64,000 nt of DNA from NCBI GenBank assembly GCA_964524895.1, contig CAZGFG010000005.1:5976-69975 (forward strand). Direction: 5' to 3'. Made by a program: the position numbers and the translations under genes. Numbering within the stretch: position 1 is the first letter of the stretch; each line of letters opens with the position of its first letter. Shown here piece after piece: positions 8,831-58,736 of this stretch. Source of the stretch: an uncultured Gammaproteobacteria bacterium (GTDB lineage: Bacteria > Patescibacteriota > Microgenomatia > Daviesbacterales > UBA10151). Below the pieces are notes generated by a model. The model was not told the origin of the DNA. It saw only the letters and a list, made by a program, of their open reading frames with translations, and did not search any database.

Positions 8831-10075
8831 ATGGACAAGACGATTATACCTAATTACAAATTACCAAGTTTATTAAACGTTCCTTCAACTTTCTTAAAAT
8901 TATTAGGTGCAAACCCTATCAAGAATATACTCCCTGAAAGTTACTATAAAAACTCAATAGGTTGTGAAAAGGTAGTATTTTTTCTTCTGGATGGATTCGG
9001 CCATAATCTATATCAAAAAGTTGGCCTGAAGTATCCTTTCTTTAAGAAGTATGCAGAGAAAGGAATCTATAACCCCATTCAAACTGTTTTTCCCTCCACA
9101 ACCGCAGCAGCTATTTCAACAATAAATAGCGGTTTGTCTCCTATTGAGCATGGCTTACCAGAATGGTATCTCTACTTTCAGGAGTTAGATGCAATCCTAG
9201 AAAGCTTACCGTTTACACCAGCTTTTAAGGAAGATCTAGATAAATTAAAAGCAGCTCCACCTAAAATATTATTCAATCAAAAGACAGTTTATGAGTACTT
9301 AAATGAGGTTCATGTGCCTTCTTATATATTTTTAAATAGGTATTTAGCGGAAAGTTTTTATAATATCCAAGCAAATAAGGGAGCGGTTGTTATTCCTTAT
9401 AATACATATCCCAATCTAATGGTTCAATTACGGAAATTACTCAATAAATCAAAAGGTAAGGCCTATATTTATGTATATATTTCTGCTATTGATAGTGCTG
9501 AGCATGAATTTGGTCCATGGGCTGAAGAAGTAGAGGTTGAAATATCGTCACTCTCCTACCTTTTAGAGGCTGAATTTGTTAATAAGATTGACCAAAATAT
9601 AGCGAATCAGATTGCTTTATTTATGACTGCAGATCACGGACAGATTGCTACTGATCCTAAAGAAACATTTTATCTGGATACCATACCCGGATTTAAAGAA
9701 TTTTTTAAGGTAGGTGCCGACGGTGAACCTATATTACCAACAGGAAATGTTAGGGATGTTTTGCTTAATATTAAACCTGAAAAGCAAGATGAGGCGATAG
9801 GATTACTAAAATCTAAATTGCCCAGTGGAACTCAGATATTAAAAATTACCAACTGTATAAAGCAAGGATGGTTTGGAAGCGGTAATACTCATCAGGAATT
9901 CCTTAATAGAACAGGTGATTTGTTAATATTACCGAATGGTGCAGATACTATTTGGTATCACTATACTCCGGAAAGCAGTTACAAATTTAAAGGAAATCAT
10001 GGTGGACAGAGCGAAGATGAGACTCTAATACCTTTTGTAAGCGCAAAATTATCTGATATGCAGAATAATTATTAA
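8831..10075 (+). CDS. Alkaline-phosphatase-superfamily metalloenzyme (type I phosphodiesterase/nucleotide pyrophosphatase- or iPGM-like)
   Basis: VVFFLLDGFGHNLY near the N-terminus, MTADHGQ, and C-terminal GNHGGQSEDETLIPF; these are typical metal-ligand motifs of the AP superfamily. Confidence 0.5.
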   Translation: MDKTIIPNYKLPSLLNVPSTFLKLLGANPIKNILPESYYKNSIGCEKVVFFLLDGFGHNLYQKVGLKYPFFKKYAEKGIYNPIQTVFPSTTAAAISTINSGLSPIEHGLPEWYLYFQELDAILESLPFTPAFKEDLDKLKAAPPKILFNQKTVYEYLNEVHVPSYIFLNRYLAESFYNIQANKGAVVIPYNTYPNLMVQLRKLLNKSKGKAYIYVYISAIDSAEHEFGPWAEEVEVEISSLSYLLEAEFVNKIDQNIANQIALFMTADHGQIATDPKETFYLDTIPGFKEFFKVGADGEPILPTGNVRDVLLNIKPEKQDEAIGLLKSKLPSGTQILKITNCIKQGWFGSGNTHQEFLNRTGDLLILPNGADTIWYHYTPESSYKFKGNHGGQSEDETLIPFVSAKLSDMQNNY

Positions 10076-10230
10076 ACCATAACTATTCATTAAACAGGTT
10101 CTAACTTGGTCCAAGCCCTGCAGCCATTCGACTCTGGTTCGGCTACGCTCACCATCGCTCACGGCCATGGCCCTGAGTTTATCGTAGGGCTATAACCAAT
10201 ATCGACAAAAGTAGAAGGTGTCAACGTAGA

Positions 10231-10249
10231 CCACCTTCCAGGTGGGATT
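10231..10249. repeat. REP-like palindromic element, copy 1 (CCACCTTCCAGGTGGGATT)
   Basis: Hairpin CCACCT/AGGTGG with a short loop followed by GATT; near-identical to the copy at 58661 next to the RAYT gene. Confidence 0.45.
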
Positions 10250-10352
10250 GGAATTACGAAAAGTCTTTTTTAATGTGTGTTAAGTTGTTAACTTCTTGAG
10301 GCTAAGTTACAAATAGTATTCTTAAAAAGACAAGATAGTATATAATCTGGCT

Positions 10353-11228
10353 ATGCCAAGACCTAAAAAAATAACTTCAGAATCAATACCTCAGCAAATA
10401 CCTAATCCTCAACCCAGTCAAGTCACACCCAATAAAAAGATTAAGGTTTTATTCTTTTCTGTTTGTAACTCTTCAATTTCAAACCCACATCTTATTCAAG
10501 CTAAAGATCAAGTTTTAGGAAAAGATGACGACTTAATTTACCTTGTTATTCACACTTATGGGGGAGATGCCTATTCAGCAGTCAGAATTATGAGAATACT
10601 TCAAAAAAGATTTAAAAAAATAGCTGTAGTAGTACCGGATATGGCTATTAGTGCGGGAACTTTAATGGCACTAGGGAGTGATGAAATATGGATGGATCAA
10701 GAATCAAGATTAGGACCACTAGATCTTCCAATAGAGCATCCTTCAGATGGTAGTAGAATATCGTCCTTAGATGTTACTAACACATTAACTAACTTAGCAT
10801 CATTTTATACATCTACAGCTTTAAATTTATATACTAGAATCAGAGATGAGATTGGTCTTAAAAAATCAGAAGCTGCAAAACTAGCATTTAGTTCTACGGC
10901 AGAAATAGTAGAGCCGGTTGCTAGACAGATTGACCCCTATCATCTACAGAAAAGTTTTCGAGAAATTAAAATCGCTCTTTATTACGCTATTGATTTATTA
11001 ACTGCTAGAATGATGAAGACTAACTTCCCTCAAGCAATGAAAACAAGCCGATCTCTGGTAAATGATTATCCGGCACATGAGTACGCAATTTTTAGAGATG
11101 AAGCTAAAGACTTACTAAATTTGAACATTAATCACATTGAAAATTTAACAGAATGGTCTACCATTAAACCAGAATTTGATAGATTACTTAGTAGTAAGAG
11201 AGATGCTATTATATTTAAGGAGCTATAA
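10353..11228 (+). CDS. ClpP/SppA-fold serine peptidase (S49/'serine dehydrogenase proteinase'-like)
   Basis: YGGDAYSAVRIMRILQ... AISAGTLMALGSDEIWMDQESRLGPLD resembles the Clp/crotonase-fold protease core (Ser nucleophile in GxSAG-like context). Confidence 0.55.
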   Translation: MPRPKKITSESIPQQIPNPQPSQVTPNKKIKVLFFSVCNSSISNPHLIQAKDQVLGKDDDLIYLVIHTYGGDAYSAVRIMRILQKRFKKIAVVVPDMAISAGTLMALGSDEIWMDQESRLGPLDLPIEHPSDGSRISSLDVTNTLTNLASFYTSTALNLYTRIRDEIGLKKSEAAKLAFSSTAEIVEPVARQIDPYHLQKSFREIKIALYYAIDLLTARMMKTNFPQAMKTSRSLVNDYPAHEYAIFRDEAKDLLNLNINHIENLTEWSTIKPEFDRLLSSKRDAIIFKEL

Positions 11229-27559: not shown

Positions 27560-27642
27560 GGCCAAGTGGTGGAATGGTAGACACGCAGGATTTAGGATCC
27601 TGTGCTGGAAACAGCGTGGAGGTTCGAGTCCTCTCTTGGCCA
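27560..27642 (+). tRNA. tRNA-Leu (anticodon TAG), long variable arm
   Basis: GGCCAAG-TG-GTGG-AATGGTAG-ACAC-G-CAGGA-TTTAGGA-TCCTG-TGCTGGAAACAGCGT-GGAGG-TTCGAGT-CCTCT-CTTGGCC-A. Confidence 0.8.
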
Positions 27643-27682
27643 CACTAAAAATTGCAAGGTCCTAGGACCTATTGTCAGTAAT

Positions 27683-27714
27683 GACGTGCAGGTTCGAGTC
27701 CTGTCCCCGGCACA
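27683..27714 (+). repeat. tRNA 3'-end-like fragment (T-arm + acceptor-like) 40 nt downstream of tRNA-Leu(TAG), preceded by 12-nt palindrome GGTCCTAGGACC
   Basis: GACGTGCAGGTTCGAGTCCTGTCCCCGGCACA parallels the 3' end of the adjacent tRNA (GCGTGGAGGTTCGAGTCCTCTCTTGGCCACA); there is no matching 5' half. Confidence 0.4.
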
Positions 27715-28458: not shown

Positions 28459-28482
28459 GGGCAGTTAGCTCAGTTGGTAGAG
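28459..28482 (+). repeat. Copy of tRNA 5' half (acceptor + D-arm) forming a direct repeat with tRNA-Val(GAC) ~750 nt downstream
   Basis: GGGCAGTTAGCTCAGTTGGTAGAG versus GGGCGGTTAGCTCAGTTGGTAGAG (23/24); homology continues weakly to the anticodon loop (CTTGA) and then stops. Confidence 0.55.
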
Positions 28483-28521
28483 AGACTACTTGAATATTTC
28501 GAACCCCACTATTATACTTGG

Positions 28522-29241
28522 TCCATGAAATCTAAATGGTACGGGTTTAAACCACAAGCAATAGAGTTGCGAAGAAATGGGAACTCATTAAGAAATGTGG
28601 CAAAAGTCTTAAATATTCCTAAATCTACTCTCAGCGGATGGTTCAGAGACATTACACTAACTCCTGAACAACAACTAGTTTTGAGAAAAAACTGGCTCGA
28701 GAACCTAAGAAATGCTAGAAGAAAGGCGGTAGTTTGGCATAACCAGCAAAAAGTGGCCCGACTAAAAGAAGCTGAGCAGTTAGCAATGAAGACGTTAGAA
28801 AGTATCAATATTAGCAACTTGAATATCTTAGAGCTTGCTTTAGCTATGTTATACCTAGCCGAGGGAGCAAAATCAGCAGGAACACTCCTAGGCAACTCTG
28901 ATCCCTTAATCCTTAAATTCTTTGTGGCAGCTCTTGAAGGTGTTTATTGTATCGATGTTAGCAAAATATCAGCCGAACTCCATTTAAGAGCAGACCAAAA
29001 TCCAGAAGAGATGAAAAGATACTGGTCTCGGGAGTTAAATCTCCCTCTAGATAACTTTAAATCTGTAAGTATTGACAAAAGAACTGCTGGATCACCCACA
29101 TATCCTACCTATAAAGGGGTCTGTGTGTTGTACTGCGGTAATATTGCTCTTCAACGAAGATTAGTGTATCTTAGTAGAGGTTTCTGCGAGAAAATTGCTA
29201 ACCTAAGGGCGGTTAGCTCAGTTGGTAGAGCGTCCGCTTGA
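28522..29241 (+). CDS. HTH + LAGLIDADG-like homing endonuclease candidate (single-motif type)
   Basis: N-terminal HTH (NVAKVLNIPKSTLSGWF); ELALAMLYLAEGAKS resembles the LAGLIDADG motif variant GLYVAEGDK (as in I-DmoI motif 2), followed by ~115 aa, the length of a homodimeric LAGLIDADG core. The ORF begins inside the tRNA 5'-half copy (track TTG at 28474; first ATG 28522) and terminates at a TGA inside the anticodon loop of tRNA-Val. Confidence 0.45.
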   Translation, partial: SMKSKWYGFKPQAIELRRNGNSLRNVAKVLNIPKSTLSGWFRDITLTPEQQLVLRKNWLENLRNARRKAVVWHNQQKVARLKEAEQLAMKTLESINISNLNILELALAMLYLAEGAKSAGTLLGNSDPLILKFFVAALEGVYCIDVSKISAELHLRADQNPEEMKRYWSRELNLPLDNFKSVSIDKRTAGSPTYPTYKGVCVLYCGNIALQRRLVYLSRGFCEKIANLRAVSSVGRASA

Positions 29242-34548: not shown

Positions 34549-34578
34549 CAGTATATATCCCGAGGTGTCATCGTATTT

Positions 34579-34612
34579 CCACCTCGGAGGTGGGATATAG
34601 AGGTGGGATATA
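34579..34612. repeat. REP-like hairpin variant (CCACCTCGGAGGTGGGATA) plus tandem GAGGTGGGATATA x2 in the pheS-pheT spacer; nested within hairpin CCCGAGGTG...CACCTCGG
   Basis: Same CCACCT-nnn-AGGTGG-GAT architecture as the copies at 10231, 57913 and 58661. Confidence 0.4.
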
Positions 34613-34616
34613 AGAT

Positions 34617-57673: not shown

Positions 57674-57943
57674 TTACTTTCTAGACTTCGAAATAAGTTT
57701 TTGTTTTTGAACTTGGGATATTCCTTTAAGTACAAATTCAAACATTCCAACCCATTGGTCGAAAGTTAACTCACTCGGCATGTCGTTGACTCTAAATCCG
57801 AGATCTTGAGCTAAACAATTAAGCTGGTTAGAAGTAAATATATCTGAGAGGTTTTGTTTTAATCTCCCACCTCCCCCAAAACCTCTAGTAACAAAAAGTT
57901 CATACAACGCCAAGCCCACCCTCCAGGTGGTTCGAATTGACAC
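57674..57943 (-). CDS. Hypothetical small protein (89 aa); possibly not coding
   Basis: ORF only; its 5' end overlaps the REP-like hairpin. A degenerate MNT-like GFGGGGRLKQNLSDIF is noted but not convincing. Confidence 0.2.
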   Translation of the reverse strand: MSIRTTWRVGLALYELFVTRGFGGGGRLKQNLSDIFTSNQLNCLAQDLGFRVNDMPSELTFDQWVGMFEFVLKGISQVQKQKLISKSRK

Positions 57944-57946
57944 CTG
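57913..57946. repeat. REP-like hairpin (AAGCCCACCCTCCAGGTGG, inverted orientation) plus second hairpin CAGGTG-GTTCGAATTGA-CACCTG, upstream of the RAYT gene
   Basis: Left flank AAGCCCACC approximates the reverse complement of GGTGGGATT in the downstream copy, giving inverted REPs around the transposase as expected for RAYT/REP units. Confidence 0.45.
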
Positions 57947-57963
57947 CTACTTTTTAAATTATA

Positions 57964-58644
57964 TTGAGGCTAATGCCCAATCCAAGAAAAATTCCTTTTG
58001 CCACTGATCACTTTTATCATGTTTACAATAGGGGAATAGAAAGAAGGCCAACCTTTATAGGGAAAAGAGAGATTAGGAGGGCTTTGGAAACTTTAAAATA
58101 TTATAGATTCACAAAGCCTCCGGTAAAACTATCCAAATTTTTATCATGCTCTGATGAGGAAAAAAACAAAATAATTCAGCAATTCAACCAAAACAACAAG
58201 CTGGTGGAAATCATAGCATTTTGTCTAATGCCCAATCATTTCCATTTTTTATTAAAGCAACTGAAAGACCAAGGAATTTCCAAATTTATTTCCAACTTTA
58301 CTAACAGTTACACCAAGTACTTTAATACTAAAAACGAGAGGGAAGGTCCTTTGTTTCAGGGTACCTTTAAAGCTGTTCTCATAGAAACAGACGAACAACT
58401 AGTTCATTTATCCAGATATATTCATTTAAATCCTATTGTTGCTGGAATAGTGGAAGAACAAAAACTGGGGGAATATATTGCCTCTTCTTATCCCGAGTAT
58501 TTAGGACAAAACACAAATGTTATTTGCCAAAGAGAAACAATTTTAAGCTTTTTTAGATCTAGGATAGAATACAAAAGATTTGTTCATGATCAAATATCTT
58601 ATGCGAAGGAGTTAAAAAGGATCAAACATCTGGCACTAGAGTAA
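57964..58644 (+). mobile_element. REP-associated tyrosine transposase (RAYT; IS200/IS605 TnpA-like HUH Y1 transposase)
   Basis: HUH motif in LMPNHFHFLL; catalytic Tyr motif YIHLNPIVAG (compare E. coli RAYT LPEHMHCIW and YIYINPVKHG); 226 aa; flanked by REP-like hairpins. Confidence 0.7.
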
Positions 58645-58660
58645 CAGGTGCCAAGCTATT

Positions 58661-58679
58661 CCACCTTCCAGGTGGGATT
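58661..58679. repeat. REP-like palindromic element (CCACCTTCCAGGTGGGATT) downstream of the RAYT gene
   Basis: 19/19 identical to the copy at 10231. Confidence 0.45.
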
Positions 58680-58736
58680 CAGCGCAAATATCAATACTCT
58701 AGACATTATCATTAGTTCTAAGTTAGACTAAAAATT

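Follow-up and report, generated by a model that had tools for sequence, protein, structure and literature searches.

Positions 57910 to 58681 of the DNA considered here, a stretch of 64 kb from contig CAZGFG010000005.1, raise the question whether a short gene enclosed by two inverted hairpins is an insertion sequence, a resident gene whose product acts on its own flanks, or a gene that merely lies between ordinary regulatory structures. The whole stretch is called the window, and all window coordinates refer to it. A first description made from the letters of the DNA (the sequence-only reading) had taken the gene for a repetitive extragenic palindromic (REP)-associated tyrosine transposase (RAYT) in what looked like a genome of the Candidate Phyla Radiation (CPR); the host is indeed a CPR bacterium, of the Daviesbacteria/Microgenomates. 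It is considered likely that 57910-58681 represents a low-copy module resembling a REPtron or TIRtron, in which a class-2 Y1 HUH gene is bounded by inverted cognate DNA sites of approximately 46 nucleotides (nt).

The Protein Encoded between the Hairpins

An open reading frame (ORF) of 226 amino acids starting with TTG is present at 57964-58644. The start common to the homologues and to independent gene calls is the ATG at 57973, which gives a protein of 223 amino acids and defines the gene as follows.

57973-58644, + strand: RAYT-like Y1 HUH gene, with the HUH histidines H89 and H91, the putative catalytic residue Tyr149 in YIHLNP, and the SS motif at residues 171-172

The assignment to the Y1 transposases, made at first by eye, was borne out by Pfam, where Y1_Tnp (PF01797) matches residues 62-151 with 41.3 bits against a gathering cut-off of 23 (E 2e-10). 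In a Pfam scan at E up to 1, the only other match was the sub-threshold DUF7225, and no C-terminal helix-turn-helix (HTH)-like domain (Bac_DnaA_C, HTH_23, HTH_28) was detected. The top NCBIfam model for the 223-amino acid protein is REP_Tyr_transpos (E 6e-17).

The motifs of the protein are NHFHFLL at residues 88-94, which includes NHFH (88-91), FQ at 128-129, YIHLNP at 149-154, and SS at 171-172. Residue conservation was scored on an alignment of 29 homologues with 40-83% identity. The invariant residues include Y15, H16, N19, R20, P87-N-H-F-H91, Q96, Y149, H151, N153, Y168, and S171-S172, and thus both the HUH metal-binding motif H89-F-H91 and the single tyrosine Y149; P154 is nearly invariant in this alignment (≥90%) and invariant in the closer homologue set. 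The class-2 Y motif, which is defined as Y-x-x-x-N-P (PMC6006769), is present as Y149-I-H-L-N153-P154.

A search of the PDB sequences with the single 223-amino acid sequence returned no match. With a profile of the 29-homologue alignment, the best PDB sequence is 4er8_A, the TnpA-REP of E. coli, at E 0.0065, with an alignment spanning the HUH and tyrosine motifs. The same entry is the top Foldseek match (E 1.2e-5) of the AlphaFold model of the 223-amino acid protein (pLDDT 83.7, pTM 0.82), followed by the TnpA proteins of ISDra2, IS608, and IS200 with probabilities of 0.99-1.00. The Pfam match, the Y-x-x-x-N-P motif, and the profile and fold matches to TnpA-REP place the protein among the Y1 HUH enzymes, in the RAYT-like class 2. 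Its family of homologues is large; clustered at 50% identity, it numbers 470 clusters with an E threshold of 1e-30 and 7,574 with one of 1e-10.

The Terminal Units

The hairpin cores that had been proposed to bracket the gene are present on both sides, as CCACC-CTCCA-GGTGG at 57916-57930 and CCACC-TTCCA-GGTGG at 58661-58675. They are short perfect palindromes with a 6-bp stem and a 3-nt loop, devoid of a bulge. Either flank extends beyond its core into a unit of ~46 nt, which consists of the palindrome CCACCT-NNN-AGGTGG, 6-7 nt, and an inward-pointing 9-nt foot, TTGACACCT; the foot repeats the 5' arm of the hairpin. When the flanks of close relatives are aligned, the upstream order is hairpin, 6-7 nt, and TTGACACCT, and the downstream order is AGGTG(Y)CAA, 6 nt (GCTAWT), and hairpin, which identifies the two ends as inverted copies of one ~46-nt unit, that is, as terminal inverted repeats. 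A covariance model of this unit, R1, was run unfiltered over the window; the copy between pheS and pheT described below was outside its training set.

57910-57955, + strand: left terminal unit, with the palindrome at 57916-57930, the spacer TTCGAA, and the foot TTGACACCT at 57937-57945, then CTACTTTTT; R1 score 48.4 bits
58636-58681, - strand: right terminal unit, reading on the + strand as the foot AGGTGCCAA at 58646-58654, the spacer GCTATT, CCACC-TTCCA-GGTGG at 58661-58675, and GATT; R1 score 46 bits

The opposite orientation of the two hairpins, which the sequence-only reading had claimed, holds for the whole unit, the foot pointing inward on either side as TTGACACCT (left) and AGGTGCCAA (right); it does not hold for the loops, since these read alike on the + strand (CTCCA left, TTCCA right).

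A further, weak candidate was read off the sequence outside the left hairpin.

57861-57874, no strand assigned: possible degenerate half-site AATCTCCCACCTCC, ~40 nt outside the left hairpin

This sequence is similar to the 5' half of AATCCCACCTTCC from other genomes and is not conserved in the sister genome (L096) that is introduced below.

Solo Units in the Window

Exactly four full-length R1 matches were found in the window, namely, the two ends of the module and two units in intergenic DNA, all with E 8e-9 or below; nothing else convincing was detected over the 64 kb.

10206-10251, - strand: solo unit in the 277-nt spacer after a phosphodiesterase-family gene, with (+ strand) the foot AGGTGTCAA at 10216-10224, CGTAGA, the palindrome at 10231-10245, and GATT
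34549-34616, - strand: pheS-pheT insert of 68 nt, with the solo unit at 34553-34599, its foot AGGTGTCA at 34563-34570, its palindrome at 34579-34593, and a duplicate GAGGTGGGATATA at 34600-34612

The unit at 10206-10251 has the highest R1 score in the window (53.2 bits) and also has CTACTTTT in common with the left end. The 19-of-19 identity that had been reported between 10231-10249 and the copy at 58661 is exact. The 19-mer in question, CCACCTTCCAGGTGGGATT, occurs at these two sites only (10231-10249 and 58661-58679); none of 100 shuffles gave two copies, and only 0.03 matches would be expected even with up to 3 mismatches. The repeat extends past the 19-mer, with 80% identity over 45 nt between 10205-10249 and 58635-58679.

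The pheS-pheT variant was likewise found as described, with CCACC-TCGGA-GGTGG at 34579-34593 and GAGGTGGGATATA in tandem at 34587-34599 and 34600-34612; its R1 score is 32.1 bits (E 8e-9). The distance from the pheS stop to the pheT start is 68 nt in the window versus 1 and 3 nt in two relatives with 75-76% PheS identity. Judged by these spacings, the copy is an insertion, and its presence in a segment that the two relatives lack indicates that units have moved.

The tandem duplication at 34587-34612, which involves the outer hairpin arm and 8-13 nt of outer flank, recurs at the right ends of L017, L020, and L029 and at the left end of L017, examples being GAGGTGGGATATA and CGAAGGTGGGTAAGACAT, each present twice. 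It may be the footprint of a cutting and rejoining reaction. Between pheS and pheT, the second GAGGTGGGATATA copy provides an unpaired Shine-Dalgarno-like GAGGTG ahead of pheT.

Could such hairpins be a chance or coding by-product of the common Shine-Dalgarno-like words GGAGGTGG and CCACCTCC? The 3' arm GGAGGTG does resemble a Shine-Dalgarno sequence, and 5 nt separate the second duplicate at 34600 from the pheT ATG; for AGGTGGGAT with up to 1 mismatch, 20 copies versus 13.8 expected amount to no enrichment; and the copy at 1328, which lies inside a gene, is encoded by a conserved peptide. This explanation is nonetheless effectively refuted by the exact 19-mer, found twice versus 0.03 expected, by the 45-nt repeat that joins two copies, by the four full-length model matches, and by the stems of other lineages, such as AACGATC and TTACGAGGC, which are unrelated. 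Among the G+C-rich 5-bp hairpins of the window, CCACC-N5-GGTGG is the most frequent. It occurs five times in exact form, always with the 5-nt spacer, the fifth copy being that at 1328, and eight times versus 0.82 expected with up to 1 mismatch.

Homologous Loci

A metagenome scan yielded 80 loci with homologues of 38-61% identity. In nearly all of them, one perfect-stem hairpin precedes the start by 20-120 nt (mostly 55-80 nt) and another follows the stop by 1-45 nt. Relatives have the unit of the window at similar places, 55-70 nt ahead of the start codon and 1-45 nt behind the stop, so that the distances from the gene are conserved. The hairpins of a locus were regarded as matching when the best hairpin on each side shared at least 5 loop-adjacent stem bases and the same loop length; this applied to 33 of 70 testable genes versus 1 of 343 control ORFs of the same loci. 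The stems vary by lineage yet agree within a locus (CCACCT, CACCC, CCACTT, AACGATC, GAGGT, TTACGAGGC, and CACTTGGCGAC), and the last 5 nt of the foot track the 5' arm of the hairpin (CACCT, CACCC, CGATC). Such lineage-specific co-variation of stem and foot would be expected if the protein co-evolved with its DNA site. Throughout the clade, matches fall on the + strand for the left unit and on the - strand for the right unit. The bracketing proposed from the window alone is therefore an inverted arrangement that recurs across the homologue family and co-varies with it.

The palindromes also adhere to the gene in related DNA. In 737 kb, 22 of 27 exact CCACC-N5-GGTGG copies lie within 200 nt of a homologue gene, and nearly all of the 54 R1 matches in 802 kb of related loci adjoin one. 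A scan for the 19-mer in contigs of other genomes identified 12 loci in other metagenome-assembled genomes (MAGs), with a perfect 23-nt palindrome, AATCCCACC-TTCCA-GGTGGGATT. In the MAG CAYHWU01, this palindrome flanks a 50-53% identical homologue and is also found at three other sites.

CAYHWU01 (L004, L006, L008, L011, L012) and CAYIGO01 (L007) are labelled "uncultured Gammaproteobacteria" and have 38-40% G+C. By tblastn, their recG/nusB/rnc/S16 neighbourhood is homologous to that of the window, and both the homologue and the exact palindrome are present in them as well. Both are probably mislabelled CPR genomes.

It might be argued that the hairpins are ordinary regulatory or terminator structures, or operators for a host factor, which merely flank a protein that does not act on them. 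The left unit does overlap a predicted promoter, the 3' untranslated region contains the right unit, and runs of A and T often border the palindrome in other genomes. In the window, however, the copies are devoid of a T-tract and none coincides with a terminator-like call, for which reason hairpins acting as intrinsic terminators were rejected. The upstream hairpin matches the downstream one despite its position outside the transcript, both vary together with the protein from lineage to lineage, the control rate of matching pairs is 1 in 343, and one copy stands between pheS and pheT, which abut in relatives. A purely regulatory origin is thus very improbable, and the role as terminators or mRNA stabilisers that the sequence-only reading had considered probable for the copies finds no support.

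Boundaries, Mobility, and Nature of the Module

A sister genome (L096) encodes a protein with 83% identity in the same L32...nusB-ACP-rnc context, next to a different upstream neighbour. Its upstream flank is conserved from the outer edge of the hairpin inward and diverged outside; on the downstream side, conservation ends at the hairpin and gives way to divergence. Conservation that is confined to the segment from hairpin to hairpin indicates that the functional unit spans this segment.

The hairpin-to-hairpin segment of ~770 bp could also be viewed as an autonomous insertion sequence (IS) of the IS200 type that moves as a whole, the solo units being debris or miniature derivatives. The exact stop of conservation at the hairpins, the unrelated gene contexts of relatives at ≤64% identity, the left hairpin of L096 that overlaps the stop codon of the upstream gene, the occurrence of three loci with two paralogues, and hairpins at both ends, a hallmark of the IS200/IS605 family, would all agree with this. 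Against it stands that only one copy of the gene is found in the 64 kb and that the same locus is occupied in the sister genome. Identical proteins (P0001, P0009) are found in a single context only, across up to 14 contigs, and the paralogues are diverged rather than near-identical. The protein carries the class-2 motif Y-x-x-x-N-P and not the Y-x-x-x-Q of IS200, and its 223 amino acids include extra N- and C-terminal parts. No close relatives are found on viral contigs. Hence, movement as an insertion sequence is regarded as unlikely. The gene probably behaves as a resident that is mostly vertically inherited over short evolutionary distances.

Two broader proposals were rejected. Family-wide synteny does not exist: the recG/nusB/rnc context is missing from all 80 metagenome loci and is found only in the sister genome and in the MAG CAYHWU01. 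Carriage by phages was dismissed because viral contigs hold only 2 weak relatives, with 26-33% identity. For the homologue P0009 (L107 and nine other contigs), most assemblies are interrupted 150-260 nt ahead of the gene. A gene for a DDE_3 (IS630-like) transposase occupies that position in L107 and is probably the cause of the breaks.

Several observations weigh against the module as a REPtron/TIRtron-like system of cognate protein and repeat. The NCBIfam equivalog model NF047646 (REP_Tyr_transpos) is matched with 61.9 bits, under its cut-off of 80; the RAYT class named at the outset is supported by the HUH and YIHLNP motifs and by TnpA-REP as the best match by profile and fold, but not by the NCBIfam RAYT threshold. 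The canonical 5' GT[AG]G tag is missing at the hairpin foot: GTAG is seen only at the 10231 copy, 1 nt from the stem, GCTA or GTAT takes its place in the other copies, and in the clade consensus the stem is preceded by GCTAWT. The single-stranded DNA hairpins are predicted to be weakly stable (-4.6 to -7.5 kcal/mol, z -0.6 to -3.2) and mostly not distinct from shuffles, and in the predicted fold the foot can pair with the 3' arm and thereby compete against the hairpin; with such folds, the case rests on the comparative evidence. Loop orientation at one end relative to the other follows no consistent rule (20 direct, 11 inverted, 4 other). The position of the gene is unconserved among relatives at ≤64% identity, and two diverged paralogues occur in 3 of the 80 loci, which makes past mobility of the whole module possible. 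Finally, the copy number appears to be low. About four of the 54 R1 matches in related DNA are strays (L020:3008, L031:1385, L086:13222, L099:8015), as expected of a low-copy repeat family, and the window holds 4 units in 64 kb. Thus, of the REP copies said to be dispersed in intergenic regions, two further full units were recovered, one of them a demonstrable insertion, but a high-copy family was not. The same division applies to the idea of a REP/RAYT system as a whole: cognate inverted units and intergenic copies are present, but tag and RAYT score, and apparently the copy number, are not those of the typical case.

Promoter and Proposed Mechanism

The left foot coincides with a promoter element.

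57937-57965, + strand: sigma-70-like promoter predicted by a promoter scan, TTGACA (the left foot), 17 nt, TATATT, with 11 of 12 consensus positions

The ATG is located 8 nt past the -10 box of this predicted promoter. The same order of TTGACA, 17 nt, a -10-like hexamer, and an ATG 6-13 nt on was also found in L016, L017, L019, L020, L032, L034, and L046. The distance of 6-13 nt between -10 box and ATG in the window and its seven relatives suggests that the mRNA of the gene is leaderless or nearly so. With the left foot serving as the -35 box, binding of the protein at this site would probably repress the gene, and this overlap would then result in autoregulation.

By analogy with TnpA-REP of E. 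coli and TnpA of IS608 (PMC3479197, PMC8266576), the hairpin would fold when the DNA is single-stranded, for example, at the replication fork. The enzyme would act as a single-strand DNA endonuclease/ligase. It would bind the hairpin together with the foot, and Tyr149 and the HUH-bound metal would cut and rejoin the strand nearby. Occasional copying of a unit to a new site would eventually give rise to solo copies such as those at 10206-10251 and between pheS and pheT. The foot may be a second recognition element or a switch.

Relation to Known Systems

The system is an apparently low-copy, atypical relative of the known REP/RAYT systems and not a new kind; REPs that are perfect palindromes, like atypical flanking structures, have been described before. 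The closest characterized counterpart is TnpA-REP of E. coli (also RAYT or YafM; structure 4ER8), which belongs to TnpA-Y1 subclass 2.2 and forms part of a REPtron (PMC3479197, PMC3333891, PMC8266576). Common to both proteins are the Y1 HUH fold, with TnpA-REP as the best PDB match by profile and by fold, and the combination of the HUH and Y-x-x-x-N-P motifs. The module also resembles the E. coli REPtron in that a single gene is bracketed by inverted cognate palindromes, more copies of which occur in intergenic DNA. In contrast, identity in the structural alignment is 16%, the protein has 223 instead of 165 amino acids, and the hairpins are devoid of a bulge or GTAG tag while possessing an inward 9-nt foot. 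A handful of copies in a CPR host is opposed to hundreds in the proteobacterial one.

By its motifs, the protein resembles TnpA-Y1 subclass 2.1 (Quentin et al. 2018, PMC6006769), which corresponds to Group 1 of Bertels (PMC5581495) and to TIRYT/TIRtron (Di Nocera et al. 2013, PMC3733652). Subclass 2.1 is characterized by NH[YF]H, FQ, Y[IV]HLNP, an SS tail, and a median length of 238 amino acids (PMC6006769); NHFH/FQ/YIHLNP/SS in a protein of 223 amino acids agrees with the second motif line of subclass 2.1, an assignment made by motif inspection. As in TIRYT, terminal inverted repeats flank the gene at fixed distances. A further parallel is the no more than moderate abundance of the repeat families, a Group 1 flanking 16-mer being present ~12 times per replicon (PMC5581495). 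The flanks of the present module are hairpins, whereas subclass 2.1 has been reported to lack nearby REP-like hairpins (PMC6006769). They consist of hairpin plus TTGACACCT, unlike the TIRYT repeats, which share GGGGWSAS (PMC3733652), and the HTH-like C-terminal Pfam match of subclass 2.1 is absent.

With IS200 (IS200/IS605 family, subclass 1.1), the module shares a size of ~0.7 kb, a single Y1 gene, and hairpins at the ends. It differs from it in YIHLNP, in the 223-amino acid protein, and in occurring as one copy, IS200 having Y-x-x-x-Q, a core-only protein of ~150 amino acids, and several near-identical copies.

In subclass 2.4 of Cyanobacteria and Bacteroidetes, REPs occur in frame inside the tnpA-REP gene (PMC6006769). 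An in-frame hairpin inside the gene is likewise present in a distant subclade of the homologue family, whereas the gene of the window contains no internal hairpin copy. This subclade (L072, L074, L077, L080, L081, L088, L092; 38-42% identity) has a third, locus-specific hairpin located ~160-200 nt into the gene, in a variable loop before the HUH strand. It is found in all three frame offsets and co-varies with both flanking hairpins.

Significance

Work on REP/RAYT systems has been carried out almost wholly on Proteobacteria and Cyanobacteria, and in the literature searched no paper linking them with CPR/Patescibacteria was found. In the tiny, repeat-poor genomes of Daviesbacteria and related Microgenomates, RAYT-like genes form a large family, and their hairpin ends co-evolve. 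These ends at least occasionally insert elsewhere, once between two normally abutting genes. A short perfect hairpin with a foot that doubles as a -35 box would be a compact model for DNA recognition independent of the GTAG tag and for possible self-regulation. For annotation it is relevant that homologue genes are labelled "transposase", which implies mobile DNA, while the gene is probably resident.

The Intragenic Palindrome and a Broader Reading

The fifth exact copy of the hairpin core in the window lies within a gene for a membrane protein.

1325-1345, no strand assigned: in-frame palindrome TTTCCACC-CCCGA-GGTGGAAA in the membrane-protein ORF 759-2474, encoding RFHPRGGK, of the same stem family and lacking the foot

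R1 matches only its hairpin part, with 13.9 bits, and its membership of the repeat family is uncertain. An origin by REP insertion into the gene was rejected, as the corresponding loop of the homologues has the same length. Orthologues keep a DNA palindrome at this site: all 21 nt are the same in L104, whose protein has 59% identity, the loop of the palindrome differs in L103, and L102 has TTACACCC-CG-GGGTGTAA, which is reached by compensatory changes that replace F by L and G by V. The codons of the palindrome are G+C-rich in a genome of 39% G+C. Taken together, these features speak for selection acting on a nucleic-acid hairpin whose stem belongs to the family of those flanking the RAYT gene.

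A more far-reaching reading would combine this palindrome with the module. The homologues (at least 470 clusters at 50% identity) would form a clade of domesticated Y1 HUH proteins that extends across the CPR and has so far escaped classification, and in which protein, hairpin, foot, and -35 box co-evolve as a self-regulating unit. The hairpin would also be selected inside host genes (the 1325-1345 loop and, in one subclade, the enzyme's own coding sequence), and the protein would serve a host function at single-stranded DNA or RNA beyond repeat spread. This reading is put forward tentatively and is, for the present, rather doubtful.

Other Features of the Window

Rfam detects only tRNAs in the window and nothing in 10050-10360. 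Between the phosphodiesterase-family gene and the solo unit, positions 10090-10195 form a G+C-rich island that has no counterpart elsewhere in the window; Rfam gives no match for it at E up to 1, and its RNA fold does not stand out from those of shuffled sequences (z -1.7). Two tRNA-like fragments are called neither by ARAGORN nor by Rfam. The first, at 27650-27714 just past the tRNA-Leu at 27560-27643, is a 3' part comprising the anticodon, variable, and T arms and the acceptor end, and is 80% like the end of tRNA-Leu; the second, at 28459-28493, is a 5' half that is 86% like the tRNA-Val at 29207. These fragments could be integration-site duplications or parts of an intron-split tRNA.

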